A DNA stretch of 54,099 nt from Candidatus Staskawiczbacteria bacterium (GCA_016866675.1 VGLO01000001.1:1-54099), one strand, 5' to 3'. Counted from the first letter of the stretch, positions 986 to 34,727 are shown. Notes: generated by a model from the letters alone, not told the origin. Translations and numbers: made by a program.

Positions 986-990
986 GATTT

Positions 991-4056: not shown

Positions 4057-4062
4057 TAAATT

Positions 4063-4248
4063 AGTTTCGTGGTTCGGTAACCGCAGTAAGGTTGGGGTGG
4101 GCTGGCACTCTGTCGAGCTCACAGATGCCAATAATTCACAGGGCTGATCATGTCGCCATATATACAGCGACACTGATGATTGGTGAACAGCTCCAACCAA
4201 GCAAATCTTAGACCATCAGGTACACTGCCCTACTTGATGGCTTTTTTT
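4063..4248 (+). ncRNA. unassigned structured small RNA (about 185 nt)
   Basis: GC-rich island with no ORF and its own promoter. Long-range stem GGTTGGGGTGGGCTG/CAGCTCCAACC encloses two hairpins (GGCACTCTGT...ACAGATGCC and ATCATGTCGC...GCGACACTGAT). Ends in terminator CCATCAGG...CTTGATGG plus T7. Confidence 0.5.
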
Positions 4249-10329: not shown

Positions 10330-10371
10330 TTGACGAATTATTTATTAAATGTTATTTAAAGATTAGCACTT
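10330..10371 (+). promoter_or_regulatory. cassette promoter TTGACG-17-TATTTA-6-AGCACTT
   Basis: -35 at 10330-10335, -10 at 10353-10358, conserved start AGCACTT at 10365. TTCTAGAA palindrome at 10370-10377. Confidence 0.55.
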
Positions 10372-10389
10372 CTAGAAAGAGAGGTCTAA

Positions 10390-10677
10390 ATGTACGAGGA
10401 AAGTCCTAAAAATTTTCAATTAAGTAAAATGCTTGAGCTCTCAGAAAAAAAATTTACATGGTCGATGATGGGGTGTGTTATTTTAACCATCACTCTTATT
10501 GTAATTTCACTTTTTGAACTCAAGGACGAGTCATACATTTATTTTATATGCGACCTACTTTTTGCTTTAATATTTTTTTACATACTAATAGTTCTCTCCC
10601 GAAAGAGAAAGAAAATTCACGACAAGAAGATTATTCTCCAGCAAATGGAAGAAGTAGTTAAAAAATCTAAAACGTAA
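10390..10677 (+). CDS. small membrane protein (95 aa), SD-led cassette
   Basis: AGAGAGG upstream of the ATG. Two hydrophobic helices and a basic tail. Terminator AGAGCG...CGCTCT plus T-run at 10685-10710. Confidence 0.55.
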   Translation: MYEESPKNFQLSKMLELSEKKFTWSMMGCVILTITLIVISLFELKDESYIYFICDLLFALIFFYILIVLSRKRKKIHDKKIILQQMEEVVKKSKT

Positions 10678-10807
10678 CAAAATAAGAGCGTAAAACCGCT
10701 CTTTTTATTTTTTAAAAATAAGCTCGATAATTATTGACCCTAAGTAAATTTTATGTTATATTTTGGGAGTTATTCGTTCATTAACCTTTACACAACTGGA
10801 GGGTCAG

Positions 10808-11110
10808 ATGCAACTTTACTATTTAGACCTTGAATGGTCGTGGTTTGAGGAAAATGGCAGTGATGAGAGTTACACACGACACTGGTGGTATATAAAGGCC
10901 GTTGTTGCTCACGAAAGTGAAGAAGCGGCTATTAATCTTATAAAGAGTAAAAACGATAACATAGGGAACGAAGACTATCTTCAACTGAGAAGTCGTCATA
11001 TAGATGTAATCGGTTCAACCGCTCAAAATAATCCTGAAATCATTTTTTCTGTCGCACAAAGTGATGAAGAAGATGATGATAACAATGATGGATGGTACAT
11101 ATTAGAGTAG
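10808..11110 (+). CDS. small acidic orphan protein (100 aa), SD-led cassette
   Basis: GGAGGG lies 5 nt upstream of the ATG at 10808, so the track start at 10763 is less likely. Promoter TTGACC-17-TATATT upstream. Terminator at 11138-11166. Confidence 0.55.
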   Translation: MQLYYLDLEWSWFEENGSDESYTRHWWYIKAVVAHESEEAAINLIKSKNDNIGNEDYLQLRSRHIDVIGSTAQNNPEIIFSVAQSDEEDDDNNDGWYILE

Positions 11111-11170
11111 GCAGAATCTGTTTAGTCACAACCAAAAAGCCCAGGAGATTCCCGGGCTCTTTTATTACAA

Positions 11171-12631
11171 TTATTTTGGTCGCATCAACGGGAAAATTTG
11201 AGTTTCGCGAGCAGGCTTATCCATTAAGAATGAAAATAGCCTTTCTGATAGGCCAAATCCGCAGGTTGGAGGCATTCCGTATTCTAAGGCCTCAACAAAG
11301 TCATAATCTGCCATTTGAGCCTCCTGATCCCCTGCTTTTCTTAATTTTTCCTGCTCCTTGAATCTTTCTTCTTGGTCTTGAGGATCATTTAGCTCTGAAT
11401 ATCCATTACCCATTTCAGACCCAGCTAAAATAACTTGGAATCTCTGTGCCATTTTTTCATTTTTTTCATCTCTTTTAGCCAGCGGAGAAACATCAATCGG
11501 TAACCCAATTAAAAATCCGGGCCCAGATAAATTCTTTCTGCAATACTTCCACAAGTTATCAATGGCGCGAGTCTTATTAAATCCCTTTTTATCATAGGTA
11601 ATTTCCAACTTCTGCAATTGCTTTTCCATTTCAGGTAAACTAGCTTCAAAAATATCTATCTTTGCGTATTTATTAATAATGGTCCAATAGTCGTATTTCT
11701 CCCACTTTTTGCCAAAATCAATCTGAAATCCTTTAATATTAAAGTCTAAAGTTCCAAAAGTTTCTTTAATTACATACTTATAAAGCTCTTCAACTAAATC
11801 CATTCCCATCTGATAATCAGCATAGGCCCAGTAAAACTCCATTTGAGTGTAATCTTGCAAATGCTCTGCATCCATTCCCTCGTTTCTGAATTGCCTGCCA
11901 ATTTCAAAGGTTTTTTCAAAACCTGCTACCATTAATTTTTTTTGCCAAAGCTCGCCAGTTGAAATTCTCAAGTATACATCTAAATCCAGTGCATTATGAT
12001 GCGTAGTAAAAGGCTTTGCATCGGCCCCCCCAGTTGTCACCTCTAAAACAGGAGTTTCAACTTCCAAAAAACCTTTTTTAATTAAAAAATTTCTCATTGA
12101 ATTCCAAAAAGTTGCGCGTTTTTGAATCATATCTTTCACCTCTGGATTAAATAAAATATCTAAATAGCGTTTTCTAAGTCTTTCTTCAACATCCTGAAGC
12201 CCATGCCATTTTTCAGGCAATGGCAATAAAGACTTTGAAAGTATTTTATAATCTTCTGCTTCAATGGTTTTTTCTCCACGCTTAGTAGTGATTAAATTTC
12301 CGGTAATTTCAATAAAGTCACCTATATCAAAATGATCTATTAAAAATTTATAACCCTTCTCCCCCACCTTATCAGTTTTAACAAGTCCTTGGATTTTTGC
12401 AGTGCCATCTTGAATGTCTAAAAATGTCGCTCCACCATGACCCCTCATTGCCATAATTCTTCCTGATACCGCAATTGATTTTTTGGACTTAAATATTTTA
12501 CCAAATAACAAAAGTGCCTCTTGGATTGCATGGGTTCTTTTTGTTTTTGCGGGATAGGCCAAAAGTCCCGCATCTTTTATGGATTTTAGTTTTTCTAATC
12601 TGACTTTTTTAAGCTCTTCTAGAGTTGGCAT
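11171..12631 (-). CDS. lysS: lysyl-tRNA synthetase (class II)
   Basis: OB-fold N-domain plus class II motifs (FRNEG..., GGxGxGxDR-like GFGLSERL). Confidence 0.95.
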   Translation of the reverse strand: MPTLEELKKVRLEKLKSIKDAGLLAYPAKTKRTHAIQEALLLFGKIFKSKKSIAVSGRIMAMRGHGGATFLDIQDGTAKIQGLVKTDKVGEKGYKFLIDHFDIGDFIEITGNLITTKRGEKTIEAEDYKILSKSLLPLPEKWHGLQDVEERLRKRYLDILFNPEVKDMIQKRATFWNSMRNFLIKKGFLEVETPVLEVTTGGADAKPFTTHHNALDLDVYLRISTGELWQKKLMVAGFEKTFEIGRQFRNEGMDAEHLQDYTQMEFYWAYADYQMGMDLVEELYKYVIKETFGTLDFNIKGFQIDFGKKWEKYDYWTIINKYAKIDIFEASLPEMEKQLQKLEITYDKKGFNKTRAIDNLWKYCRKNLSGPGFLIGLPIDVSPLAKRDEKNEKMAQRFQVILAGSEMGNGYSELNDPQDQEERFKEQEKLRKAGDQEAQMADYDFVEALEYGMPPTCGFGLSERLFSFLMDKPARETQIFPLMRPK

Positions 12632-12638
12632 ATACTGA

Positions 12639-12666
12639 ATTATATCAAAATATAATCAAATGGCAA
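12639..12666 (-). promoter_or_regulatory. lysS promoter TTGCCA-16-TATAAT placed for a leaderless mRNA
   Basis: Minus-sense sequence TTGCCA TTTGATTATATTTTGA TATAAT TCAGTAT ATG. Only 7 nt separate the -10 from the start codon, and there is no SD. Confidence 0.5.
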
Positions 12667-12670
12667 ATAA

Positions 12671-12706
12671 TTGACATTAACTAATCTTAGTGATAATCTT
12701 TATTGA
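12671..12706 (+). promoter_or_regulatory. cassette promoter TTGACA-17-TAATCT
   Basis: -35 at 12671-12676, TG-extended -10 (GTGATAATCT). Divergent from and back-to-back with the lysS promoter. Confidence 0.45.
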
Positions 12707-12741
12707 GATTTACTACCAAAAACTCTTTAAAGGAGGAGACT

Positions 12742-12960
12742 ATGTTCTTTGAATGCTTTATAGACGAAGAAGCCAAAAAAGAAGGCGTTTCTTTTTTTGT
12801 TATGGGAAGCAACTATAAAAAAGCCAGAGAAAGGGCTGCAATTTTTCTTGAGTACTTTGAAATGCCAACCGAGGATCTTATTATAAGGAGACCAAGAAGT
12901 CCTAGGCGATTGCCAAAAAAGAAGCGTAGCAAAATTCTTTCCTGCAGAAGAAGTAATTAA
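12742..12960 (+). CDS. small orphan protein (72 aa) with basic tail, SD-led cassette
   Basis: AGGAGGAG lies 4-5 nt upstream of the ATG at 12742. Terminator ATGGGCG...CGCCCAT plus T-run at 12987-13022. Confidence 0.5.
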   Translation: MFFECFIDEEAKKEGVSFFVMGSNYKKARERAAIFLEYFEMPTEDLIIRRPRSPRRLPKKKRSKILSCRRSN

Positions 12961-13020
12961 TTCAAAGAACATTTTTTGAAAAAACAATGGGCGATTTGAA
13001 CTTTAAAGCGCCCATTTTTA

Positions 13021-13056
13021 TTTGACAAAAATTATAATAAGTATTATATTATTCTA
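13021..13056 (+). promoter_or_regulatory. cassette promoter TTGACA-17-TATATT, start near AGAACC
   Basis: -35 at 13021-13026, -10 at 13044-13049. TTCTAGAA at 13051-13058. Confidence 0.5.
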
Positions 13057-13068
13057 GAACCCTTAACC

Positions 13069-13479
13069 ATGGAGGTAGAGGTGAAAATTTCATTATTTCG
13101 CAGGATACTCCAAATTCAGACAGAATTTAAGCTTGAGCTCATTGCAAAAAAACAGATACATTTTGATTCTCTCATAGAAAAAGGAAATGAATTAAGAATT
13201 GAATGGGAGAAACAAATTGCTAGACAAAAACAGTGGAAGGAAAAATGTCTTTCAATAATGTGTCCTGATTGTGAATACGGGCAAACAGAATGCAGATGTC
13301 ACTGTAAGGCAGACTATGATTTCTTAGTAGAAGAAATTAGGTCTCTCGCTGGAATAAACCCAGTCATAAGACATGGAAGCCCAATTCATGATGAAGACAA
13401 GTCATCTGGACCAGTCGGCTACCGTGTTTGCGGAAAAGACAGCTGGGACAATGCTGTGAGAGAATATGAAAACTTATAG
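13069..13479 (+). CDS. orphan protein (136 aa), coiled-coil N-terminus plus Cys-rich cluster
   Basis: The ATG at 13069 overlaps a GGAGG, so GTG at 13081 is an alternative start. CLSIMCPDCEYGQTECRCHC cluster. Terminator AGAGCGG-AAAT-CCGCTCT plus T5 at 13478-13499. Confidence 0.55.
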   Translation: MEVEVKISLFRRILQIQTEFKLELIAKKQIHFDSLIEKGNELRIEWEKQIARQKQWKEKCLSIMCPDCEYGQTECRCHCKADYDFLVEEIRSLAGINPVIRHGSPIHDEDKSSGPVGYRVCGKDSWDNAVREYENL

Positions 13480-13497
13480 AGCGGAAATCCGCTCTTT

Positions 13498-15426
13498 TTA
13501 TTTGCTTGAAAAGTAATATTGCAAAACATCATAGGCAACCGGCAAAGTAGCTGCCCTTAACCCTTCAACGCCCTCAATTGTAGTCACAAAAACTATTTCT
13601 GGATTTTCATATGGTGCATAGCTTGATGACCATGTATTAAAAAATCCCGATTTATTTGTTTCTACTGTACCTGTTTTTCCTGCTACATCAACAGGTAAAT
13701 CATTTAACATATAAGAAGACCCATAAGGCATTTTTACTCCATCTCTCATGCCTTCTTGAATTACTTTTATATTTTCTAGGTCAATAGATATTTTTGAATT
13801 TATAATTGGCTCAAAACTTTTAATTATTTCTGCGTCTTTACCAGAGCCTTGCACTACTTTTTGAACAACTTGCGGTTGATATAAAGTACCGCCATTGGCA
13901 ATAGCTGAATATGCTAAGGCAACTTGTAGTGGTGTCACCTGCAAATCAGATTGTCCTATGGACAAGTTGTATGTATCTCCATCCCACCATGATTCTTTTT
14001 TTACTTGTTTTTTCCACTCGGGACTTGGCACAAAACCAGCAAATTCTCCGGGTAAATCAATCCCAGTTTTTTGCTCCCATCCATACATATCAAGATAATT
14101 TTTTATTCTTGTTGGTCCCAACCCTTTTTGATCTTCATATCCCCCACCAATTGTATAAAAATAAATGTTTGAAGAAACAGCTAATGCTTTTCTCATATCA
14201 ACTAAACCATGAGGTTTTACTCCTCCAAATCTGTAAGAAATATCTGGATCATTTTGATTTTTAATTAAGATGTATCCTGGATCGTTTATTTGTTTTTCTG
14301 GAGAAATTATATTTTCTTGAAGAGCCCCAGAAGCTAAAAACGGCTTTATCGTAGAGCCCGTTGGATATTGAGCGGAAATAGACCTATTGAAAAATGGTTG
14401 ATTAGGATCGTTTAATAGCTTACTAAATTCATCTTGAGAAACACCCTTGCTAAAAATATTATTGTCGTAGCTTGGATACGATACTAATGCCAAAATGGCA
14501 CCGTTTTGTGGGTTAATTGCCACAGCTGAACCCTTTTTTGCACCAATATTTTTGATTGATTTTTCTAAGGCGTTATAAACCTCTGTTTGAAAGTCTGAAT
14601 TAATATTTAAAACTAAGTTATAGCCTTCCTTTGGTTCAGATAAAATTTTGTCTCCCCTTTTGACGCCAATAGCATCTCGAATAACTTCTGTTTTACCGGG
14701 AGTCCCTCTTAAATATTTTTCGTAAAACTTTTCAAGCCCCAATTTTCCAATGTAGTCGTTTACTGAATAATCAATTGACGATTCAAGCTCGCTACTACTT
14801 ATTCTACCGTTATGCCCCAGAACATGTGAGAATATTGGACCCAAGACATAACTTCTTGATGTGTTTTTTTCTATTACGCAGTCAGGTAATTCATTTTTTT
14901 TTGTTTCTAGAAATAAAATTGTTTCATGACTTAAATTTTCAGATATTAAAACCTGTGGGCTAACAGATGACTCAATATGGATTTTTAAATCATTTGCATC
15001 TTTTTTTAATACTTCTGCCATTACTTTTATTTCACTCTCAAATAAATTTGAATCAGAAAAGTTCCTCTTGTCACAACTTAAGTCATAAGCTGGTGAATTC
15101 GAAACAATTTTTTTATAATTATTGTCATAAATTATTCCCCTTTCTGGCCTTATTATGCTTATTTTTCCTTTATTATTTTCAGCTAAAGTAAAAAGCTTAT
15201 TACCATCAAAAACCTGAAGAAAAAATGTTTTAGTAATCAGTAATCCAGAAATAATAAAAAATAAAGCAAAAATTGAATAAATAATCTTTTCATTAATCTT
15301 AACTTCAAATTTTTTCTCTGAAATACCAAGCTCCTGCTCTTTTATGTGAGCAATTTTATCTAAAAAAACCTCATGTGTTTCAATGTCGTAAAAAGCCTCT
15401 CTTAATTTGTACTTATTAAGTTTCAT
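13498..15426 (-). CDS. mrdA: penicillin-binding protein 2 (elongation transpeptidase)
   Basis: N-terminal TM, PBP dimerisation domain, STIKP (SxxK), SSN-type and KTGT motifs. Immediately downstream of mreC and mreD. Confidence 0.9.
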   Translation of the reverse strand: MKLNKYKLREAFYDIETHEVFLDKIAHIKEQELGISEKKFEVKINEKIIYSIFALFFIISGLLITKTFFLQVFDGNKLFTLAENNKGKISIIRPERGIIYDNNYKKIVSNSPAYDLSCDKRNFSDSNLFESEIKVMAEVLKKDANDLKIHIESSVSPQVLISENLSHETILFLETKKNELPDCVIEKNTSRSYVLGPIFSHVLGHNGRISSSELESSIDYSVNDYIGKLGLEKFYEKYLRGTPGKTEVIRDAIGVKRGDKILSEPKEGYNLVLNINSDFQTEVYNALEKSIKNIGAKKGSAVAINPQNGAILALVSYPSYDNNIFSKGVSQDEFSKLLNDPNQPFFNRSISAQYPTGSTIKPFLASGALQENIISPEKQINDPGYILIKNQNDPDISYRFGGVKPHGLVDMRKALAVSSNIYFYTIGGGYEDQKGLGPTRIKNYLDMYGWEQKTGIDLPGEFAGFVPSPEWKKQVKKESWWDGDTYNLSIGQSDLQVTPLQVALAYSAIANGGTLYQPQVVQKVVQGSGKDAEIIKSFEPIINSKISIDLENIKVIQEGMRDGVKMPYGSSYMLNDLPVDVAGKTGTVETNKSGFFNTWSSSYAPYENPEIVFVTTIEGVEGLRAATLPVAYDVLQYYFSSK

Positions 15427-15428
15427 TA

Positions 15429-15953
15429 TTAAAGCAGTTTAAGCTGATTTGTATCTTTTTTATAAATTACTAATTTGTAAAGGTAAAATCCAATTCCAGC
15501 AAAAATTATATTGTATAATAAACCAATTAAAACCATGTAGCTAAATGAAAATCCAGTATCAAATTTAAAAAAGAATGAAACAAAATATCCAATTAAATGA
15601 TACAGTATAAAAAATAAAGAAAATATTGCTAGAAAATAATATATAGAAATTTTTTCTTGACCACTTTTTGAGAGGTAGGAAAAAGCTTTCTCTAATCCAA
15701 AAATAAGCAGTAATATAATAAATGAAATTCCAAAATAGGAAATAGTTGTTATATCAAGAAAAATACTGCATACAAAAGCCATAAAAATGATTGTCTCATA
15801 CTTTCCTTTATTTTCAAAAAAAATCACTAAAAAGAATATTATAAACAATAAATTAGGTGTATATCCTGCAATACTAAAATATGGCAATAAGCTAAACTGA
15901 AATATTGTTGCAAAAAAAAGTATTAAAACTATTAAAGGGTATTTAAACCACAT
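15429..15953 (-). CDS. mreD: rod shape-determining protein MreD
   Basis: Polytopic small membrane protein located between mreC and PBP2. Confidence 0.7.
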   Translation of the reverse strand: MWFKYPLIVLILFFATIFQFSLLPYFSIAGYTPNLLFIIFFLVIFFENKGKYETIIFMAFVCSIFLDITTISYFGISFIILLLIFGLEKAFSYLSKSGQEKISIYYFLAIFSLFFILYHLIGYFVSFFFKFDTGFSFSYMVLIGLLYNIIFAGIGFYLYKLVIYKKDTNQLKLL

Positions 15954-16043
15954 ATGATTTTATGAAACAAAGCGAGTAAAGTCATGTCACTCATTTGACC
16001 TGGTAAGTATACCTTGGGAGTCAAATAAGCGACGGGCTTTATT

Positions 16044-16871
16044 TTACTTTTTATAATTTTCAATTAAAAATAAGTTATCACTATTGCCTATTTCAAAATA
16101 ATGCTCAACTTTTGCAGTTTGAAATGGCTTTAAATCACTTTTATCTACTGATATAACTTTTCCAATTAACAAGTTTGGTGGGAAAAAACCCTCTAAGCCA
16201 GAAGTGACTATTAAATCATCTTGATTAAGATTTAATTCTGCATCAACCAAATCCAAATAAACACTTTGTCTGCCCTTTCCCCTTAATACTCCAAAGATTG
16301 TTTTTTCTTCTATGTTTTTTGGTTGCACTTTAACATCAACAGTGCTTTCTTTGGCTGACAATAATAAAACACTCGAGAAATTTTTAAAAACTTTTGTGAC
16401 TCTTCCATAAACTGACATTTCTTTGGAAATCAAAAGCATCCCCTCTAAAACACCGTCTTCCTGACCTTTATTTATTCCAATTGTGTCATTTTCTAAATTT
16501 ATTCCATTTATTTTTACAAGCATGAGTGAAAAATTGAGATCTTCTGAATTTTCTACAGCAATACTAGTATCATTAAATTCTTTTATTTTATCTTTTAAAA
16601 TTGACATCTCGTACATAATTTCCTTATTTTGCCTTTCTAATTCATCGCTTTTTTTTCTTATCTTTTTTGATAATAAAATATTACCAAAAAAATAGTTTAA
16701 GCTCTCTCCGGTGCCCATAAAAACGTTGGCTATTGGGCTTGATGATAAATAAAAAAAATTTCTAACTGGCCCAGAAAAAAGATTAAGTAGTGTTATTGAA
16801 ATAATAAAAACCAGCGACCTTATTAGAATTTTTTGTGAAAAAATAAATTGTTTTTTACTTCTTAAATTCAT
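16044..16871 (-). CDS. mreC: rod shape-determining protein MreC
   Basis: N-terminal TM, coiled coil, beta-barrel region (VVTSGLEGFFPPNLLIGKV). Confidence 0.8.
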   Translation of the reverse strand: MNLRSKKQFIFSQKILIRSLVFIISITLLNLFSGPVRNFFYLSSSPIANVFMGTGESLNYFFGNILLSKKIRKKSDELERQNKEIMYEMSILKDKIKEFNDTSIAVENSEDLNFSLMLVKINGINLENDTIGINKGQEDGVLEGMLLISKEMSVYGRVTKVFKNFSSVLLLSAKESTVDVKVQPKNIEEKTIFGVLRGKGRQSVYLDLVDAELNLNQDDLIVTSGLEGFFPPNLLIGKVISVDKSDLKPFQTAKVEHYFEIGNSDNLFLIENYKK

Positions 16872-16942
16872 TGTAATTTTTCACTCTATCAAAAATAGTC
16901 TTATCAATCAAATTATGACATTTTAGTAATTATTCAATAGGA

Positions 16943-16984
16943 TTGACATAATCTACTAAGTAAAGTACTATTTTGGTAGCACTT
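16943..16984 (+). promoter_or_regulatory. cassette promoter TTGACA-17-TACTAT-6-AGCACTT
   Basis: -35 at 16943-16948, -10 at 16966-16971, conserved start AGCACTT at 16978. Confidence 0.55.
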
Positions 16985-17008
16985 AAAAGGAGGTTTTTAT
17001 GCTAATCA

Positions 17009-17317
17009 TTGATAAGAATACTGAAAGTAACTTTATGGCTGCGAAGTTACGAATTGATTAAAGCGGGATTTAATAGAAGGCTTGATTTCATTAAGAATAA
17101 GCTAGTATATAAGAGATTTTTTAGGGAATTTTCCGTGGACCCAAGTAGTTTCTTGTACTACTTTGACCTAGATGTGATGTTTCCTACACAAAAATGTGTA
17201 GACTTAATGAAAGAGTTATATATAGAGCATGATGATATGCACATGATACTGACGATATTTTACTATACTACGGAAGTTAAGGGAAAAATCTTTGATGATT
17301 TTTTTAGAGAAAACTAA
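17009..17317 (+). CDS. orphan protein (about 100 aa); start uncertain
   Basis: AAGGAGG at 16988-16994 is followed by an ATG at 16999 in a different frame (20-codon ORF). The long ORF begins with TTG at 17009. Terminator ACCGACCATAATGGCCGGT plus T-run at about 17318-17347. Confidence 0.4.
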   Translation: MIRILKVTLWLRSYELIKAGFNRRLDFIKNKLVYKRFFREFSVDPSSFLYYFDLDVMFPTQKCVDLMKELYIEHDDMHMILTIFYYTTEVKGKIFDDFFREN

Positions 17318-17539
17318 AACCGACCATAATGGCCGGTCTTTTTTTATATTAATTTCTAGAATTGAGTTCTAGAATTCAATTCTCAAATGCTTTCGAGCTG
17401 TTTGTTTTGGAATTTTTAGCGAGGCAAAGAAAAAATTCTGAAGCTTATCCCATGCGATATGTTGAGCGATTTTTGCAAAATCGCAGCAAAAATTACAAAC
17501 AAAAAGCCGAAACTTTCGGCATTTGTGTATTGAGTTCTA

Positions 17540-17650
17540 TGGTGGCAACTACCTACTCTCGCGTTCATCACACTACCATCGGCCTTGATGTATTTCACTT
17601 CCGAGTTCGAAATGGGATCGGGTGGGACAACACCAGTATAATTGCCACCA
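17540..17650 (-). rRNA. rrf: 5S rRNA
   Basis: The reverse complement aligns with bacterial 5S (…CCTACTCTCGC…ACACTACCATCGG…TTTCACTTCCGAGTTCGAAATGGGATCGGGTGGGACAAC…). Terminal helix TGGTGGCAA/TTGCCACCA. Terminator AAATGCCGAAAGTTTCGGC plus T-run follows at about 17500-17525. Confidence 0.9.
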
Positions 17651-17730
17651 CAAAACTCAATTTGTGGACTAAGTTTACTTTAAAGCAAAATTCTGTATCT
17701 TGCAAAAAACTCAATTTTCTGAGTTTATCG

Positions 17731-20785
<3,055 letters not shown>

Positions 20786-21120
20786 CAATTATCGAATTCG
20801 TTTTAATTCCATACCGCTTTTTGCGGTCGGCATAGAATTTATCTTGCGTAAGATACAGTTTTTTCTTGTACAGCACGGGTGTGACGTACAAGAGTATGCT
20901 TTACCTTCACCTTTTTTTGGTGAAGAATTTTGATTACCTTTATTCTACTAAATAAGACCCATCTTAAAATTAGTAGAATGGCCCTGTTGAATTTCAACTT
21001 AGTAAAAAACTCATATATGCCTTTTGGGCATATTTTAACAGGGTTAAAATTTTCAAGCAACTTTCATAATTAGTCCGCGATTAAAAATATTTTTACTTTC
21101 AATCGCGGGCTAACTAATTT

Positions 21121-21148
21121 CAAACAAAAAAATCCGCGTCAAGCGGAT
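21121..21148 (-). terminator. intrinsic terminator-like hairpin inside the 23S leader
   Basis: Minus-sense ATCCGC-TTGAC-GCGGAT followed by T7GTTTG. An upstream segment CAAGCGGAT (21176-21184) can pair with the 5' arm instead. Confidence 0.45.
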
Positions 21149-21225
21149 CCAACTGATACAAAAATTCAGACAATCATCCGCTTGCTTTATTTTGTTTAGA
21201 TTTAGTTTGATATAACATTAAGGCC

Positions 21226-21254
21226 ATTCTAATCTATTTAAAAAGCAGTGTCAA
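21226..21254 (-). promoter_or_regulatory. promoter TTGACA-17-TAGAAT upstream of 23S-5S
   Basis: Minus-sense TTGACA (21254-21249), 17 nt spacer, TAGAAT (21231-21226). Confidence 0.5.
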
Positions 21255-21353
21255 GTCCAATTACTAGTTTAATTAAATCTAAAGATTAAACCCATACTTT
21301 TAAAGCAAAAGCGCCCCGAAAAACAGGGCGCTTTTAGCATTTATTATTAACTC

Positions 21354-22049
21354 TTACCTCTGAGTTATTTTATTTCTCATGTCTTTGAGTGCATCAGCTG
21401 CTACTTCCTTTCCGCCTAACCCAATCGCAATAGCAATTCCTAATGACAAAGTCCCAACAATACCCCAGACAATTGCCATATATAATGTCTTAATCAAATC
21501 GCTTGTAGGTAATAATTGCTCCAGAATCAAGAATATTGTAAATATCCAAATTGACCACTTAATAATCATTGAAGCTAAATGTCCGTACCCCACTTTCATT
21601 CTTTCAACTGTAATTCTGACAACCTTTTCAATAATGTCAGAAATTATTACTGCCACAACAAATATTAAAGCAGCAACAACTACGTTTGGTAAGTAATTTA
21701 ATACTTGAGTTAATACTCCACCAAATTGTGATAACTGAAGAATATCTACAGAAATAAGTAATGAAACTATTACAAAAACCCACTTTACAATAGCTCCAAT
21801 AAACTCTGATGGATCAACGTCGACATTTGCTCTTTGTAGGGCCTTGTGCCATCCCTCTTTGTCAAAAATTTTATTAAACTTTACTGACTTTAAAATTTCA
21901 GAGATTACTCTTCCAACACCAACTGAAATTAAGTATCCAACTACAAAAACTATTACAGCCAACAAAAGTTTTGCAGCAAAACCTATAAACCCTTGCAGAA
22001 ATGGCTGAATAATTATTAAAAACCATTCGTTATATGTCATTTTTAACAT
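21354..22049 (-). CDS. polytopic membrane protein with repeated conserved TM-helix units (MscS-N-terminal-like)
   Basis: Internal repeats of hydrophobic helix plus charged linker. Terminator AAAGCGCCCTG...GGGGCGCTTT at 21309-21336. Confidence 0.55.
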   Translation of the reverse strand: MLKMTYNEWFLIIIQPFLQGFIGFAAKLLLAVIVFVVGYLISVGVGRVISEILKSVKFNKIFDKEGWHKALQRANVDVDPSEFIGAIVKWVFVIVSLLISVDILQLSQFGGVLTQVLNYLPNVVVAALIFVVAVIISDIIEKVVRITVERMKVGYGHLASMIIKWSIWIFTIFLILEQLLPTSDLIKTLYMAIVWGIVGTLSLGIAIAIGLGGKEVAADALKDMRNKITQR

Positions 22050-22274
22050 GAAACTTAAAACGTGAAACGTGAAACAATGGTTTTACGCCTCAAATAAAAA
22101 GTTTCAAATTTATTTAGTTCGCCCTTAAATTATAAAGTCGACCACGAAAAGAGCGTTGTTAATTCTATTTATCAATTATCCTATTTTTTGCACACACAAA
22201 TCAATACCTCCTGTGGATAAGTAAGGAAGCACAACGAACACTCATCCCAAGTAAAGCGAAGGATTACCGTATAA

Positions 22275-23000
22275 CTATTTAATATACTGTTCCCAATCTT
22301 TAGGTAAATCAATTTTCAAATGAATATCCTTATCTCCAGTAGCTGATTTAAATGATAATCCTGTTGCACAAAGAGCAATGGAATTATTATCTTGCCATTC
22401 ATCAGTCCCCTTTTTTTGATCCTGTCTGCCGGTAGACAGGTGTTCTTTGTCTCCTAGAATTGGATGACCTAATTCAGCCATTTGAATTCTGATTTGGTGA
22501 AACCTTCCGGTTTTGGGTAAAATTTCAAGTAAACTATATTTTCCGTTTGACTTTACCACTTTATAACTTAACTCAGCTGTTCTTGTTTTAGTAGCCTTTT
22601 TAACAGCCTCTAAAATTTCCTTATCACTTTTTTTTGCAAATCCTTCAGCAAAAAATGAAACCTTACTCACCTTCTCTTTTAGCTCTCCTTGTTTTTCTTT
22701 TAATTCCCCAAAAACAATTGCATTGTAAGTTTTTTGTATGGCGTGGTTGCGAAACTGCTCTGACAACCTTGAGGCTCCTTTAGATGTTTTCGCAAAAACC
22801 ATAATTCCTGTGACAGGCTTGTCCAGTCTATGAACAAGACCCAAAAAAACATTTCCGGGCTTATTATACTTTTCTTTTAAGTAATTTTTAACTTCGTCAA
22901 AAATACTAGGTTTTCCTGTCATATCACCATGACTCAAAACACCCGCTGGTTTTAACACTGCTATTATATGGTTGTCTTCGTATAAAACTTTTAATTCCAT
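22275..23000 (-). CDS. RluA-family pseudouridine synthase
   Basis: HRLDKPVTGIMVFAKT (catalytic Asp motif) and GRFHQIRIQMA. Confidence 0.85.
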   Translation of the reverse strand: MELKVLYEDNHIIAVLKPAGVLSHGDMTGKPSIFDEVKNYLKEKYNKPGNVFLGLVHRLDKPVTGIMVFAKTSKGASRLSEQFRNHAIQKTYNAIVFGELKEKQGELKEKVSKVSFFAEGFAKKSDKEILEAVKKATKTRTAELSYKVVKSNGKYSLLEILPKTGRFHQIRIQMAELGHPILGDKEHLSTGRQDQKKGTDEWQDNNSIALCATGLSFKSATGDKDIHLKIDLPKDWEQYIK

Positions 23001-23066
23001 TTTAAGTATGATACAGGTAAATTAGAGTACTTTCAATTCCCCTCTCAAAAGAAAGGAGGAGAACGC

Positions 23067-23348
23067 ATGAGGATCAGCTTTTTCAATTACCGCTTGGAAT
23101 TGAAAAAGGGATCGTCCAATGGCCCATTTCTTAGTGTTAATTGGCCATTGGTTGACCTGCCCGTTGCAGGTTCGAAGTTGGCCTTCGCAGTTTTGCGGAA
23201 CGGCCAGTCGAGTAAGGAAAGGATTGTCAATTCTGAAGTCTTAGTTGTCCAAGAAAGGGACAACTCCGCCCTAATTTGGGTGGACATGGAGGAGCTGAGT
23301 GATGAAGAGTTCGTTGGAAATTGGCGAAACTATTCGCCACCACATTAA
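23067..23348 (+). CDS. orphan protein (93 aa), SD-led, locally GC-rich
   Basis: AAGGAGGAG lies 5 nt upstream of the ATG. Hairpin CCCCGCAACAATGTTGCGGGG at about 23358-23386. Confidence 0.5.
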   Translation: MRISFFNYRLELKKGSSNGPFLSVNWPLVDLPVAGSKLAFAVLRNGQSSKERIVNSEVLVVQERDNSALIWVDMEELSDEEFVGNWRNYSPPH

Positions 23349-23388
23349 TTTCGCCTAAACCCCGCAACAATGTTGCGGGGTTGAACAT

Positions 23389-23682
23389 TTAGACTAATAA
23401 TCTTTTAATCCTTTCTGCTTCCCCTTCTACAACGCTACCGTCATATTCTCCACTGTGACCAGTTGAGCCCTCATATGAAGGCTTTTTTTGGTCCAAGTGT
23501 AAGTTAAATGAAAACCCATCACCACTTTCTTTAATATATAAATGAAACCTTGGATAATCTGCTCCGCCCATTTTTCTAATTACGCTAAACTCCCCTGCTT
23601 TCTGAAAATAAGCCGGCTGATATCCAATTGTCCTCATAATGTCGTTTATACTTTTATTAATATTAGTAATTGAAAATTCCAT
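23389..23682 (-). CDS. conserved-looking hypothetical protein, tandem paralog A (97 aa)
   Basis: MEFSI...IGY...YPRFHLY...LHLDQKKPSY..GHSGEYDG...E.ERIK. No SD. Confidence 0.6.
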   Translation of the reverse strand: MEFSITNINKSINDIMRTIGYQPAYFQKAGEFSVIRKMGGADYPRFHLYIKESGDGFSFNLHLDQKKPSYEGSTGHSGEYDGSVVEGEAERIKRLLV

Positions 23683-23775
23683 ATTTTTTATTTTCCCGAC
23701 GCCAAAGCCGTAAAGGATCCGCGTATGAATTTAATCACATTAAATTTATCGGGACAAATTGCATTTTTAGTTTGA

Positions 23776-24081
23776 TTATTCGTTAATTGATTTTTTTATT
23801 ATTCCTTTAATTCTATTGGTCTCCACTTTTATTTCATTACTACTATATATATCAAGTTTATCCAGTAAGCTTTCTCTCAAAGTTTCTTTTTGGTCAATAT
23901 GAAGTCTAAATAAAATTGAGCCATTTTTACGCTCACCATATAGATGGAATTTTGGATAAGAGATACTTCCCGACTGCCTCAACATAGAACAAATACCTTT
24001 TTCGTGAAACTTAATTTCACTATACCCAATTAATTTTGCAATATCAGTAATACTCATCTGTGTTTTAATACTGAATTCCAT
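23776..24081 (-). CDS. hypothetical protein, tandem paralog B (101 aa)
   Basis: MEFSI...IGY...YPKFHLY...LHIDQKE... aligns with paralog A but lacks the SYEGSTGHSGEYDG segment. Confidence 0.6.
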   Translation of the reverse strand: MEFSIKTQMSITDIAKLIGYSEIKFHEKGICSMLRQSGSISYPKFHLYGERKNGSILFRLHIDQKETLRESLLDKLDIYSSNEIKVETNRIKGIIKKSINE

Positions 24082-24083
24082 AG

Positions 24084-24125
24084 TTGCTAAAAATTTTACT
24101 TTATGATACTATTTTTTCAGCACAA
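24084..24125 (+). promoter_or_regulatory. cassette promoter TTGCTA-17-TACTAT-6-AGCACAA
   Basis: -35 at 24084-24089, TG-extended -10 at 24107-24112, conserved start AGCACAA at 24119. Confidence 0.55.
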
Positions 24126-24160
24126 GAACAAGTTCTCTAGTCTCGCCAAGGGAGCGACAT

Positions 24161-24391
24161 ATGTACTATCTGATTATGGTAAAGCCTTCAGAAATTTTTG
24201 ATGGAGCTGAATGCGTTAGTCTGGAATTTGAGATATCTCGCAACAATCTAGAAGCAATCAAACAGTCTGAGAAAATTGCCTCTGAAGTAAAATTTAAGAT
24301 GCCTAATGGTCAAACCTGCAAAGGAGCTCCCGTGGCTCTTAGAGAATGGGGCGGAAACGACCCTCAACCTACAATTATTAAACAGTGGTAA
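24161..24391 (+). CDS. small orphan protein (76 aa), SD-led cassette
   Basis: AAGGGAG upstream of the ATG. Terminator ATCTCG...CGAGAT plus T8 at about 24400-24429. Confidence 0.5.
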   Translation: MYYLIMVKPSEIFDGAECVSLEFEISRNNLEAIKQSEKIASEVKFKMPNGQTCKGAPVALREWGGNDPQPTIIKQW

Positions 24392-24428
24392 TATTTTATA
24401 ATCTCGTACGCCCAATGCGAGATTTTTT

Positions 24429-24470
24429 TTGACAAAGTTTCCTCCATAGAATAACGTATAAACAGCACTT
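24429..24470 (+). promoter_or_regulatory. cassette promoter TTGACA-17-TAACGT-6-AGCACTT
   Basis: -35 at 24429-24434, -10 at 24452-24457, conserved start AGCACTT at 24464. Confidence 0.5.
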
Positions 24471-24506
24471 AAACAACAAATTTAACAAAAAGAAAAGGAG
24501 TTTACA

Positions 24507-24722
24507 GTGAAAGCATTTCTTAGTTTCATGATATTGCTCCTATTAATAACAGGAATAATACTTACAACTATGCTATTGATCTTACACTCAAGCCCTGCCG
24601 AGGGAGCATGGTTGGCGACTATCGCCTATCTCATACTTGGCACAATATTCACTGTGCCAAACCTTTTTCCGCAGACACACCACCCGGACTGTTACTTTGA
24701 CCTTCAGGAGGACTGGCAATGA
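24507..24722 (+). CDS. small two-TM membrane protein (71 aa), GTG start
   Basis: AAAGGAG lies 7 nt upstream of the GTG. Two hydrophobic helices. Confidence 0.5.
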   Translation: MKAFLSFMILLLLITGIILTTMLLILHSSPAEGAWLATIAYLILGTIFTVPNLFPQTHHPDCYFDLQEDWQ

Positions 24723-24892
24723 AAAATGAAGAGATTGTCGCGAGAGTAAGAGCTTTGGTCAAAAGCTATAATGAAGCATACGAGGGTCTTTTCACAAGAT
24801 TTGAACCAAATTACAGTAAAATAAGGAAAGAGAAGTTAAAACTTCAAGCAGAACTTACCACCGAACTTCGCAAAATTCTCTCTTTGCAATAG
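24719..24892 (+). CDS. small helical protein (57 aa), translationally coupled (ATGA overlap); below the ORF-track cutoff
   Basis: My own translation is MKNEEIVARVRALVKSYNEAYEGLFTRFEPNYSKIRKEKLKLQAELTTELRKILSLQ. The start overlaps the stop of 24507-24722. A terminator-like hairpin follows at about 24900-24927. Confidence 0.45.
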   Translation: MKNEEIVARVRALVKSYNEAYEGLFTRFEPNYSKIRKEKLKLQAELTTELRKILSLQ

Positions 24893-24927
24893 TCTATATC
24901 CCCAGCTCGCCGCTGTGGGATTCTTTA

Positions 24928-24966
24928 TTGACAAATTATTTATTTTGTAATATTGTATTATCTAGA
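24928..24966 (+). promoter_or_regulatory. cassette promoter TTGACA-17-TATTGT, start near AGAACC
   Basis: -35 at 24928-24933, -10 at 24951-24956. The sequence around the start (TCTAGAACCTT) closely resembles the 13021 cassette. Confidence 0.5.
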
Positions 24967-24988
24967 ACCTTCAATAAAGGAGAGTGTT

Positions 24989-25246
24989 ATGAAGTACAGA
25001 CTTCTCTATCAAATCTGGAGCTATGATGTGGTGACGGGGATGAGATACAGAGAAGAGCAATTAGAGGCACCAGATGACGAAATGGCCAAAACCCTTCTTT
25101 CTCAATTCTCTTTTAACCTAAAAGAGAGAGTTCATAGACTGCAAATCAAAGCATTTTTCATTAGAGAATTATTTCAGGCAGGCGAGCACCCGGATGAAGA
25201 TCGGCTCGTGATACGACTAGATACTGCCTCTACCTGGACGCCTTGA
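24989..25246 (+). CDS. small orphan protein (85 aa), SD-led cassette
   Basis: AAGGAGAG lies 6 nt upstream of the ATG at 24989, so the track start at 24953 is less likely. Confidence 0.5.
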   Translation: MKYRLLYQIWSYDVVTGMRYREEQLEAPDDEMAKTLLSQFSFNLKERVHRLQIKAFFIRELFQAGEHPDEDRLVIRLDTASTWTP

Positions 25247-25286
25247 GTTTTTTGCCAGTTGCCCCAGCATCTGGTTTTTTATTTAC

Positions 25287-25328
25287 TTGATAATTATAAT
25301 TTTTTATTATATCCTACAACCAGCACAA
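25287..25328 (+). promoter_or_regulatory. cassette promoter TTGATA-17-TATCCT-6-AGCACAA
   Basis: -35 at 25287-25292, -10 at 25310-25315, conserved start AGCACAA at 25322. Confidence 0.5.
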
Positions 25329-25342: not shown

Positions 25343-25546
25343 ATGGAAGACTATGAATGGGAATACTGTGTTTTTTCTCATAATGCTCAAAGCCGAGAAA
25401 TCTATGATTTCACTGCCGAAGATGATAATAAAGCAGTCTGCATAGTAAGAGGAAAGAAAAGAGATATGGAAAGAATTTACAGGAAAGTTAAACACGTTGG
25501 ACTATTCCGAAAGTTAAAGATTATCAATGTAAGCTTCTTTAACTAA
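25343..25546 (+). CDS. small orphan protein (67 aa), SD-led cassette
   Basis: AAAGGAGG lies 9 nt upstream of the ATG at 25343. Terminator AAGACACGTATATGTGTCTT plus T-run at 25547-25568. Confidence 0.5.
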   Translation: MEDYEWEYCVFSHNAQSREIYDFTAEDDNKAVCIVRGKKRDMERIYRKVKHVGLFRKLKIINVSFFN

Positions 25547-25567
25547 GACACGTATATGTGTCTTTTT

Positions 25568-28477: not shown

Positions 28478-28637
28478 GGAGGCAGGTCGCTCGCCCTTAC
28501 CGCCCTCGCCCTACTAAGGCTAGCTCTACGGTTCTGGTCTCGCTCTTTCAAAACCCTCTGTTTTGAATTATTTCCTACACGGGGAAACCGAATTTTCCCC
28601 GACCCCCCCTCCAGTTGTATTAATTTTAAGTAATCGT
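28478..28637 (-). promoter_or_regulatory. GC-rich structured 5' leader of greA (about 160 nt)
   Basis: The closing helix GGAGG..GGTCG (5') pairs with CGACC..CCTCC, which abuts the ATG. Internal hairpins GGGGAAA-ATTCGG-TTTCCCC and CAAAAC-AGAGG-GTTTTG. Confidence 0.4.
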
Positions 28638-28643
28638 ACAGTT

Positions 28644-28671
28644 ATACTATCAAAATTCTTAAAAATTTCAA
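28644..28671 (-). promoter_or_regulatory. greA promoter TTGAAA-16-TAGTAT (TG-extended)
   Basis: Minus-sense TTGAAA (28671-28666) and TGATAGTAT (-10 at 28649-28644). Confidence 0.45.
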
Positions 28672-28705
28672 GTAAAAGAAAAGTCACTCACGAGCGTAAG
28701 TGACT
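28668..28705 (-). terminator. intrinsic terminator ending the 16S transcription unit
   Basis: Minus-sense AGTCACT-TACGCTCGTG-AGTGACT followed by TTTTCTTTT. Confidence 0.6.
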
Positions 28706-28715
28706 CAAGAAAAAT

Positions 28716-28810
28716 GCCAGATAACTAAGGTGTCCGGTTGCCCATGAAGCTGGCCGTCACCATTCGGCCGAGGAGGTAGCAACCGTCGGTTTCAACCAAA
28801 GTTATCTGGC
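28716..28810 (-). ncRNA. 95 nt long hairpin element displaying ACCUCCU in an internal loop
   Basis: Stem GCCAGATAACT..GG / CC..AGTTATCTGGC, inner stems CGGTTGC/GCAACCG and GGCCG/CGGCC. Minus-sense UACCUCCUC (28771-28777 on plus) is unpaired in this fold. Confidence 0.4.
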
Positions 28811-33384: not shown

Positions 33385-33579
33385 TTATCCCTCGTTTCCA
33401 GCTATTAATTTTGGTTTCCATGGAAGATTTGGTTTCCAAAGCCTCCAATCGCGAAACCGAGGGTGATTATTCCTAATTTCCCTATATCGTTCAACTACTT
33501 CCTTGTCATCCTCGCCTTTTATAATAACCTTTGAATTCTTACCACCATCATCGGTATAGCAAAGTTCGTAATAAGTCAT
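33385..33579 (-). CDS. small orphan protein (64 aa), SD-led
   Basis: GGGAGG lies 5 nt upstream of the ATG. Second gene of a two-gene unit. Confidence 0.5.
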   Translation of the reverse strand: MTYYELCYTDDGGKNSKVIIKGEDDKEVVERYREIRNNHPRFRDWRLWKPNLPWKPKLIAGNEG

Positions 33580-33919
33580 TACTACCTCCCTTACATTCCT
33601 TGACGATATACAAGAGAGTCATCAGATCGCTGATACGTTCGTCGCTCAACAACAATACCGTTGATTTTTTTTCAACAGTATAATATTGTTCAGACCAACG
33701 ACGTTGCACTGCCTCTATCTTAATGCGCTTTAGTTGCTCTTCCTGCTGATGTTCGTGCTTGAGAAATCGCCTCCAAGCTTCAAGACGATTGACTTTGCGA
33801 CTATACTTAGAAAGTCGCTTAAAGAATGATTCAAACTTAAAACGCAACATAAGCATCTTCCCTAACCTCTTTTTTATTATATTTTCCCTCCTGCTGTTTT
33901 TCAAGATTTTCTTGGCCAT
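33548..33919 (-). CDS. basic helical orphan protein (123 aa), SD-led
   Basis: AAGGAGG lies 5 nt upstream of the ATG. Divergent from the RF1-like gene. Confidence 0.5.
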
Positions 33920-33986
33920 CTCAACCTCCTTATTTTGCTATCAAGGTACTGTTTTAAAAACTAAATTCTTATGGTATATTACTACA

Positions 33987-34727
33987 ATGGAAATAGAAAA
34001 ACAATCAGTAATTGTAGAAATAAGAGCTGGCACCGGCGGAGATGAAGCCGGGCTTTTTGCGCGTGATTTATATAGGATGTATACAAAGTATGCTACCAGC
34101 CAAGGATGGGGGCAAAAAGTGCTGGATTCTAATATGTCTGACATTGGAGGATATAAAGAAATTATTTTTGAGTTAAAGGGAGAGGAAGCTTATGATCAGC
34201 TTCAGTATGAGGGCGGAGTACATCGCGTTCAAAGAATTCCCAAAACAGAAAAACAGGGACGTGTACATACTTCAACGGTGACAGTGGCTGTAATGAAAAA
34301 ACCTCAAAGGACAGAATTTTCAATAAACCCAGCTGACATTCAAATGGATACTTACAGGGCTTCAGGAGCCGGCGGACAGTATGTAAATAAGACCGAATCA
34401 GCTGTTAGGCTTACTCACAAGCCAACAGGAGTTGTAGTGACTTCTCAGTCTGAAAGATCTCAACTTCAAAATCGAGAAAACGCCATGCAATTAATGGCTG
34501 CTAGAATCTTGCAAGCTCAAGAGGAAGCAGACTTATCAAGTTTATCAGAAGAAAGACGCGCACAAATTGGATGGGCAAAAAGATCAGAAAAAACTCGGAC
34601 ATATAATTATCCGCAAAACAGAATTACCGATCACCGAATTGGAAAATCGTGGCATAATCTTGAAAAAATTGTTGAAGGAGATTTAAGCCCCATCATCAAA
34701 GCATTTAAAAAAGGAAAAGAAGAATAA
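33987..34727 (+). CDS. prfA: class I peptide chain release factor, RF1-type, lacking N-terminal domain 1 (246 aa)
   Basis: Begins at [25 protein letters not shown] (start of domain 2). [14 protein letters not shown] (PxT-type anticodon motif) and [16 protein letters not shown] (GGQ). The in-frame upstream extension in the track shows no RF similarity. A TG-extended -10 (TGGTATATT) lies 6 nt before the ATG. Confidence 0.8.

Follow-up and report, generated by a model that had tools for sequence, protein, structure and literature searches.

Five small-gene cassettes in a stretch of DNA from a Candidatus Staskawiczbacteria bacterium (GCA_016866675.1, VGLO01000001.1:1-54099; all 54,099 nucleotides are referred to here as the window) are each preceded by a promoter-like site of the same geometry, in which a -35 hexamer, 17 nucleotides (nt), a -10 hexamer and a further 6 nt are followed by the pentamer AGCAC. 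An earlier note on this DNA had listed these sites in front of what are designated here cassettes A, E, G, H and J, and every one of them was confirmed at its position (Table 1). Quite possibly, AGCAC is the start-site core of a Staskawiczbacteria-specific promoter-leader module that is kept by selection on initiation and inherited with the cassettes, and this is the explanation favored here. To our knowledge, nothing is known experimentally about transcription or translation signals in the Patescibacteria (candidate phyla radiation, CPR), as almost none of these organisms have been cultivated.

Results from shuffling experiments indicate that the recurrence of the motif in the window is not accidental. 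The pattern TTGNNN-N17-TANNNT-N6-AGCAC has four matches in the window compared with a mean of 0.05 in dinucleotide-preserving shuffles, and none of 100 shuffles reached four. The fifth site (cassette A, TATTTA) falls outside this strict pattern because the last base of its -10 hexamer is A. The pentamer is present in 46 copies on the two strands of the window; just five adjoin a promoter-like site before an open reading frame (ORF), and the other 41 do not. Together with the unbiased 5-mer test in relatives described below, the shuffles rule out a chance origin. All five sites have the features of sigma-70-type promoters, namely TTGnnn, a 17-bp spacer and TAnnn(T/A), and the clade consensus is TTGACA/17/TAnnnT. 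Their sequence would fit a start at a purine after a pyrimidine (Y-1, A+1), 6-8 nt downstream of the -10 hexamer. An extended repeat of the repetitive extragenic palindrome or miniature inverted-repeat transposable element type (REP/MITE) was not found, as the window copies share only 5 bp beyond the boxes and a hairpin occurs in one sub-family, always in the leader. The separation of these sites from other promoters also held: AGCAC is absent from the start position of the promoters of 16S, 23S, lysS, greA and the RNA candidates at 4 kb and 51.8 kb, and the test at core genes found it at none of the core-gene or stable-RNA promoters of the window.

The same class of promoter has also been probed in relatives, which were retrieved via the neighboring gene ychF and are nearly all labelled Candidatus Staskawiczbacteria (Patescibacteria/CPR). 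The window and 34 Staskawiczbacteria loci make up a clade set of 507 kb from 35 related genomes, in which promoter-like sites were chosen by their -35 and -10 hexamers alone (TTGACA or a sequence one mismatch from it, 17 bp, TANNNT; n = 237). At exactly 6 nt past the -10 hexamer, no 5-mer is more enriched than AGCAC, which has 13 sites and a 103-fold excess over background. A wider class, Y(-1)-A-G-[C/T]-A-[C/T] (AGYAY), comprises 24-25 sites with mostly A at +6. Variation within this class is limited to C/T at +3 and +5, and from -45 to +25 no position besides the two hexamers is otherwise conserved. Among the loci compared, the class is confined to this lineage: it accounts for 21 of the 212 promoter-like sites of Staskawiczbacteria, and none of the 83 sites of other Patescibacteria or the 37 of other bacteria belongs to it. 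Seventeen of the 19 intergenic AGYAY promoters precede an ORF led by a Shine-Dalgarno (SD)-like motif and encoding 36-136 amino acids (aa; median 76), and the downstream ORFs are mutually unrelated by BLASTP apart from the orthologs of cassette G. The claim of a non-random, position-fixed motif on small unrelated ORFs is therefore borne out by the shuffles, the 5-mer enrichment and BLASTP, and a motif search with inspection of what lies downstream, run on the 507 kb, shows the class recurring before short unrelated ORFs.

Similar starts are found outside the lineage in a different setting. In a CPR-like lineage outside the Staskawiczbacteria, a conserved promoter with the sequence TTGACA-17-TATATT-TATTAT-AGCACAAA precedes a type II tRNA gene, indicating that an AGCAC start is not intrinsically tied to small ORFs. 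At least six contigs with this tRNA promoter (L152, L170, L191, L212, L237 and L240) are among the metagenome matches listed, which come mostly from unrelated bacteria. The AGCACAAA tRNA leader contains a long hairpin, and an ORF is inserted in two of the contigs.

The distinguishing feature of the class is confined to three bases. Y-1/R+1 and G+2 (the core recognition element) are described start-site determinants of RNA polymerase (PMC5730371). When the AGYAY sites are removed, the other promoters of the clade set keep T-1, A+1 and G+2 and have no preference at +3 to +5. Consequently, only +3 to +5 are special, since the preceding positions are common to other promoters of the lineage, and AGYAY is a discrete class rather than the tail of a graded preference. 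Among 30 AG starts, 16 are YAY, compared with about 2.3 expected from base composition by our own estimate.

Common origin and reuse of the leader are supported for one sub-family of these promoters. A module consisting of the promoter, AG(C/T)A(C/T)A and a hairpin is found in nine genomes before at least eight non-homologous ORFs (lengths of 214, 112, 69, 91, 76/77, 70 and 78 aa). The leader hairpin (GRGCAA...TTGCYC) directly follows AGCACA(Y) and has three pairs with compensatory changes, and homology stops directly past it. In several genomes the module is found back to back with m1 or m2, with 0-13 nt between its -35 hexamer and the start codon of the divergent gene, and promoters of the hairpin-leader sub-family have a spacer identity of 0.76-0.94 with different ORFs downstream. 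The earlier suggestion that the cassette leaders share a common origin thus stands for this sub-family and finds no such support in cassettes A, E, H and J, which are at background identity; likewise, covariation of the leaders was found in the hairpin of this one sub-family, and the other window leaders share the boxes only. Among A, E, H and J the spacer identity is 0.34, and spacers, discriminators and leaders range from 0.28 to 0.37, which is the background level, with AGCAC identical (5/5) in all. An intact AGCAC amid flanks at background level suggests selection on the five bases themselves.

The m1 and m2 proteins, which are paralogs, belong to a strongly conserved 97-aa family, also present in L008-L041, of more than 1,100 homologs that has no Pfam family and whose genes are normally found directly after ychF. 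Their start codon abuts the -35 hexamer of a divergent AG(C/T)A(C/T) promoter in several genomes, and m1/m2 have no SD motif of their own. The AlphaFold model of m1 (predicted local distance difference test, pLDDT, 83) gives only weak matches to KA1/TBP-like folds. The possibility that AGCAC acts as the -35 element of a divergent m1/m2 promoter was rejected because its geometry is unsuitable and a divergent neighbor is missing from most AGCAC promoters.

Turnover has a hot spot between ychF and m1, where some relatives have no cassette and others have one to five. One relative, L276, has flanks 84% identical to those of the window. Cassettes G and H are kept there with AGCAC, and in the G promoter the spacer and leader have been rewritten with TACTAT and AGCAC unchanged. 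An ortholog of related cassette I is present, has diverged, and has the start AGCTC. In place of J there are two other cassettes, both with TAGTTT-6-AGCACAT and the hairpin GAGCAA..TTTGCT, such that paralogous promoter-leaders drive unrelated proteins, one soluble and one membrane-bound. Across orthologs of the G promoter the start is AGCAC in the window, L016 and L276, AGAAT in L272 and AGTGA in L271, and is unrecognizable in L020/L274 and L275. The promoters of cassettes A to D are almost unchanged in an 88%-identical relative, a comparison too close to be informative. As a side observation, an insertion sequence (IS) with an rve-type transposase is located in L269 between two ORFs that match the G family in size (77 aa; 484-3234); the copy at 3001-3234 alone was confirmed as a G-family member, and this transposase is the sole mobile-element gene seen near cassettes.

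These comparisons bear directly on the view that the promoters are copies of one ancestral cassette promoter and that AGCAC is an undecayed leftover without function. The m1-adjacent promoters are indeed clearly paralogous or orthologous (spacer identity up to 0.94), leaders have been duplicated in L276, and some orthologs have a drifted motif or none. The view is nonetheless a poor candidate, since it leaves unexplained the four window promoters that combine background identity with a 5/5 pentamer, the G promoter of L276, and the restriction of variation to C/T at two positions.

The favored explanation combines descent with selection. In the proposed module, TTGACA and TAnnnT hexamers of the sigma-70 type, 17 bp apart, and a 6-bp discriminator whose last base is a pyrimidine would be followed by the start A-G-(C/T)-A-(C/T), usually then A, often a hairpin, and finally, 4-8 nt upstream of the start codon, a GGAG-type motif. 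The module would drive self-contained promoter-small ORF-terminator units that lie between core genes, mostly antiparallel to them, and that are gained, lost and replaced rapidly. The extra C-A-C would be inherited with the module and retained by selection because it makes initiation efficient and unambiguous and gives the leadered mRNAs a defined 5' end. Several points weigh against this proposal. Placement of the transcript 5' end at the A of AGCAC is inferred from spacing. The core-gene and stable-RNA promoters of the same genome lack AGCAC, which is unexpected if this is the best initiating sequence, and we know of no RNA polymerase contact that reads +3 to +5. Descent alone fails for the four window promoters that are not next to m1/m2, because their spacers are at background. 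Finally, constraint on the motif appears moderate, such that it helps and is not indispensable, since some G orthologs are without it.

The function of the cassette leaders has also been considered in light of translation initiation, using first-ATG counts in the clade and separate counts for the window only. Of 12 small cassette ORFs in the window, 11 have GGAG or GAGG at canonical spacing, between -16 and -4, compared with none of the 42 core ORFs (Fisher p = 1.3e-10). In long ORFs of the clade the motif occurs at the background rate (15/228), and an SD-like motif is present at 16 of 20 AGYAY promoters of the clade and in most G-family orthologs. Several core genes of the window look leaderless, with the ATG following 6-7 nt after the end of a -10-like hexamer. 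This contrast in SD-like motifs between cassettes and core genes sets the AGCAC leaders apart as a separate gene class that is leadered and SD-like-bearing. The 16S gene ends in GGATCATTTTTTTA (3' end at window 29361-29374, minus strand), where TTTTT stands in place of the anti-SD CCTCC. An identical replacement is found in 14 of the 14 relatives that cover the 16S end (L008, L010, L016, L018-L020, L025-L027, L031, L033, L035, L039 and L041). No CCTCC is present within 1.1 kb downstream of 16S in 11 of these 14, and the remaining copies are at no conserved position. Loss of the anti-SD motif has been reported in a subgroup of the Parcubacteria (PMC9297842). A ribosome of this lineage, being without the anti-SD, should not read an SD.

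It is conceivable, if improbable, that an AG(C/A)AC start combined with a GGAG-type motif is the signature of a second class of gene expression in this lineage, which has lost the anti-SD. The fast-evolving small accessory genes would then rely on a dedicated pathway recognizing both a defined 5' end and a purine-rich GGAGG box. This pathway could involve 5'-end-dependent loading of the ribosome, a specialized initiation or RNA-binding factor, or a regulator acting on the GGAGG vacated by the ribosome. If so, AGCAC would be part of a translation or stability code and not a promoter detail.

A rather unlikely alternative is a post-transcriptional regulon, in which a 5'-terminal AG(C/U)A(C/U) is read by a lineage-specific factor for joint control of stability or translation; an RNA-binding protein, a 5'-end-dependent RNase or pyrophosphohydrolase, a small RNA and the ribosome are candidates. 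Such a regulon would agree with the fixed position of the motif at the presumed 5' end, with the discreteness of the class, and with the presence of leadered, SD-like cassette mRNAs beside SD-less and partly leaderless core genes. A G at position 2 would suit RppH-type pyrophosphohydrolases, which prefer or require it (PMC7144940). The only changes at +3 and +5 are Y for Y, which would still pair with G in a partner GUGCU, but transitions are the commonest mutations and this is weak evidence. The stem of hairpin leaders is predicted to begin at +7/+8, leaving AGCACA(Y) single-stranded, and the predicted pairing of the first five bases is low, yet no lower than the end effect. A search for a regulator, RNase or RNA partner for the motif found none. 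The complement GTGCT is absent from all 23 leaders and from the window RNA candidates at 4.0, 41.9 and 51.8 kb, and in 16S GUGCU occurs only inside a universally conserved internal segment, which we take to be helix 34. Pairing of the 5' end with a downstream GUGCU/UGCU was rejected, as the full complement is absent and the excess of TGCT stems from the hairpin arm, and pairing with the 16S 3' end or the window RNA candidates was rejected because no complement is found there. Moreover, orthologous promoters drop the motif yet keep the gene. A dedicated trans-acting reader would not be needed under the favored explanation, in which shared descent and promoter-level constraint account for the shared 5' end.

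Quite improbable, too, is a DNA operator, according to which AGCAC is a site or half-site of a transcription factor that overlaps the start and co-regulates the cassettes, for example a degenerate form of the controlling inverted repeat of chaperone expression (CIRCE) bound by HrcA. The leader of cassette A (window 10363-10389) contains an imperfect inverted repeat, TTAGCACTT-CTAGAAAGA-GAGGTCTAA with arms N9 apart, and is predicted to fold as a 5' hairpin over part of the SD-like motif. This TTAGCACTT-N9-GAGGTCTAA is three mismatches from CIRCE (TTAGCACTC-N9-GAGTGCTAA), and no better match to CIRCE is present in the 1.2 Mb of loci. In unrelated bacteria among the matches listed (L202, L214, L231 and L259), the CIRCE left arm places AGCAC exactly 6 nt past the -10 hexamer, and an HTH_17 gene lies nearby. 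On the other side, the motif is 5 bp long, asymmetric and strand-specific, with no second half-site except in cassette A. No canonical CIRCE is present in any Staskawiczbacteria locus, and neither hrcA nor chaperone genes are among the window ORFs scanned. A CIRCE/HrcA operator was rejected on the grounds that only cassette A resembles CIRCE and the other sites have no right arm.

A separate palindrome, TTCTAGAA, has six copies in the window compared with about two expected (at 10370, 13052, 14905, 17354, 17367 and 39710). One copy directly follows the AGCAC of cassette A, another overlaps the start AGAAC in cassette D, and two are arranged in tandem between the cassette E terminator and 5S. 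A role as an operator was rejected: the palindrome, which lies near three starts, is not enriched in relatives, where its copies sit in coding sequence.

The cassettes themselves share a common architecture. All of A, D, E, G, H, I and J have a promoter-like site, an SD-like motif, an ORF and a terminator-like hairpin, and their ORFs have G+C and third-position G+C (GC3) somewhat above those of core genes. The cassette proteins have no Pfam family and no significant PHROG match. Packing is tight, such that the -35 hexamer of G is 2 nt away from the ATG of divergent m2 and that of H is fused to the T-run of the G terminator. The protein encoded by cassette G belongs to a real family with members of 75-91 aa. 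Its AlphaFold model (pLDDT 94) is of alpha/beta type and has no significant structural neighbor in the Protein Data Bank (PDB) or among viral models, suggesting a confidently predicted, new-looking small fold. The gene in cassette E may be disrupted, frameshifted or decaying, because its SD-led ATG opens only 20 codons and a second ORF of 102 codons lies in another frame (17009-17317), with a TTG start and without an SD motif. A phage origin of the cassettes was rejected. The pattern TTGACA-N17-TANNNT-N5-CAGCACA matched 58 times among 2.9 million viral contigs, which is the chance level, and never more than once per contig; as noted above, there is no significant PHROG hit and no viral structural neighbor of G.

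Related starts extend the set with less regular spacing. The two AGAACC units that had been described beside the five (13022/13056 and 24928/24964) do have this start and the extended similarity TATTAT(T)CTAGAACC(C)TT, but AGAAC lies 5 and 7 nt past the -10 hexamer, not 6. The RNA candidate at 41.9 kb similarly has AGAAC at its promoter at a spacing of 7 nt, not 6. A sixth probable member on the minus strand, missing from the earlier list, has the promoter TTGTAG-18-TAGTTT-7-AGTAC (33987..33946) and is divergent from the leaderless-looking release-factor gene. With respect to 3' ends, terminators in L011-L013, L021, L276 and the window (25256-25282) have the form CCAG-N-CCCAG-N-CTGG followed by TTTTTTATTT. 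Since this form is common to several genomes, the cassette 3' ends also look like a reused module.

Table 1. Coordinates of cassettes, promoters and compared genes in the window (numbers between the boxes are spacings in nt).
Feature	Coordinates	Strand	Description
Promoter, cassette A	10330..10369	+	TTGACG-17-TATTTA-6-AGCAC; AGCAC 10365-10369
Cassette A	10390..10703	+	ORF 95 aa with two predicted membrane helices (10390-10677); terminator 10684-10703
Related cassette D	13022..13495	+	TTGACA-17-TATATT-5-AGAAC; ORF 136 aa (13069-13479); terminator
Promoter, cassette E	16943..16982	+	TTGACA-17-TACTAT-6-AGCAC; AGCAC 16978
Cassette E	16999..17340	+	SD-led ATG 16999, 20 codons; terminator 17316-17340
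m1	23389-23682	-	Conserved lineage protein (97-101 aa for m1 and m2)
m2	23776-24081	-	Paralog of m1
Promoter, cassette G	24084..24135	+	TTGCTA-17-TACTAT-6-AGCAC (24119-24123); short leader hairpin GAACAAGTTC (24126-24135)
Cassette G	24161..24424	+	ORF 76 aa (24161-24391); terminator 24400-24424
Promoter, cassette H	24429..24468	+	TTGACA-17-TAACGT-6-AGCAC; AGCAC 24464
Cassette H	24507..24919	+	Overlapping ORFs: 71 aa membrane protein (24507-24722) and 57 aa (24719-24892); terminator 24906-24919
Related cassette I	24928..25282	+	TTGACA-17-TATTGT-7-AGAAC; ORF 85 aa (24989-25246); terminator CCAGTTGCCCCAGCATCTGG then T-run
Promoter, cassette J	25287..25326	+	TTGATA-17-TATCCT-6-AGCAC; AGCAC 25322; leader just 21 nt, AGCACAAAGGAGG...ATG
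Cassette J	25343..25564	+	ORF 67 aa (25343-25546); terminator 25545-25564; convergent with ychF
Probable further member	33385..33987	-	SD-led ORFs 33919-33548 (123 aa) and 33579-33385 (64 aa)
Small-ORF starts compared	10390, 10808, 12742, 16999, 23067, 24161, 24507, 24989, 25343	+	
Small-ORF starts compared	33919, 33579	-	
Leaderless-looking lysS	12631	-	TATAAT-TCAGTAT-ATG
Leaderless-looking rluA	23000	-	TATCAT-ACTTAAA-ATG
Leaderless-looking release factor	33978	+	TATATT-ACTACA-ATG
Leaderless-looking ftsZ	50709	-	TAGAAT-AGCTTA-ATG

The window has a G+C content of 35%, and near-identical strains are present in freshwater metagenomes, including lake samples SRR16108667, SRR7052762 and JGI 3300020197. 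Its rRNA genes are on the minus strand (23S-5S, 17540-20777; 16S, 29361-30826) and are separated by 8.6 kb of protein-coding DNA. The core genes are mainly on the minus strand as well and include lysS, PBP2, mreC, an MscS-like gene, rluA, ychF, greA, tsf, rpsB, glycolytic genes and ftsZ. The small ORFs lie on the strand opposite to the core genes, in the gaps between these, each with a promoter-like site, a GGAG motif and an intrinsic-terminator-like hairpin. At gathering score, Rfam searches of the window gave rRNA and tRNA matches only, with no known RNA leader family.

Several other features of the window lie outside the cassettes. The region between the MscS-like gene and rluA (22050-22275) is long and odd in composition, with a GAAACGTGAAACGTGAAAC repeat and a G+C-richer part, and has no Rfam match; a minus-strand non-coding RNA may be encoded here. 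The roughly 880 nt that separate greA from the 3' end of 16S (28478-29360, minus strand) contain several strong hairpins and no long ORF. Promoter-to-terminator units without an ORF or a match at the Rfam gathering score are found at 41857-42140 (+), 4029-4240 (+) and 51913-51620 (-). The 41.9 kb unit looks like a reduced RNase P RNA, in which 5' AAAGCGAGGAAAA and 3' CCTCGCTAAA could pair. The two genes at the end (52620-54006), one of which is nicotianamine-synthase-like, are far richer in G+C (0.54 for 53458-54006) and were probably acquired horizontally.

The cassettes can be compared with several known systems. Promoter reuse by putative mobile promoters has been described as the occurrence of highly similar promoters before non-homologous genes (Nijveen, Matus-Garcia and van Passel 2012; PMC3575422). 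The hairpin-leader module matches this description, as it precedes at least eight unrelated ORFs. In contrast, cassettes A, E, H and J of the window do not match it, sharing only the -35 hexamer, the -10 hexamer and the five start bases, and a further difference is that reuse here extends into the transcribed leader, with its covarying hairpin and SD-like motif. Phage morons are reportedly independent promoter-ORF-terminator units located between core genes (Juhala et al. 2000; Hendrix et al. 2000). Similar to morons, the cassettes have their own promoter, one or two small ORFs and their own terminator, lie between conserved genes, vary among relatives and deviate slightly in composition. Unlike morons, they are in a cellular chromosome with lysS, PBP2, mreC, the rRNA genes, rluA and ychF as neighbors and no phage genes nearby. 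The known RNA polymerase determinants (PMC5730371) are matched in Y-1, A+1, G+2 and a start 7 nt past the -10 hexamer; they are silent on +3 to +5, and the CAC/YAY extension defines a class of one lineage. CIRCE is a 9-bp inverted repeat found at chaperone operons (hrcA-grpE-dnaK, groESL) of genomes that encode hrcA. With CIRCE the motif has in common the AGCAC core of the left arm at the same distance from the -10 hexamer, and cassette A has two imperfect arms; however, the second arm is missing at every site in relatives and at four window sites out of five, and the downstream genes are not chaperones. The arrays also resemble integrons, with small variable ORFs beside a conserved gene and a fixed promoter platform (the m1-adjacent promoter and hairpin) at one end. 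In contrast to integron cassettes, which are promoterless, bounded by attC and adjacent to an intI integrase with attI and Pc, every cassette here has its own promoter and intrinsic terminator; no integrase is among the window ORFs scanned, a scan that did not include a search for attC sites.

A final parallel is conceptual. Eukaryotic TOP mRNAs carry a 5'-terminal oligopyrimidine that is subject to cap-dependent recognition by LARP1, and the earlier idea of shared 5'-end control is parallel to this in that an invariant 5' sequence on unrelated mRNAs would permit their coordinated control. The domain of life and the sequence are different, and no reader was found for AGCAC. We know of nothing comparable to TOP control that is established in bacteria, and should the motif be read, it would be a rare bacterial case of control by a shared 5'-terminal mRNA sequence. 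If it is a plain promoter feature, it would still be a useful annotation rule for the clade. In either case, the motif offers a sequence handle for locating the small accessory proteins of these episymbionts in metagenomic data, for understanding how new small genes obtain expression through a ready-made promoter-leader, and for studying the choice of start codon once SD/anti-SD pairing is gone. As a whole, the finding is not a new category and falls within known kinds, namely reused promoters and moron-like cassettes.

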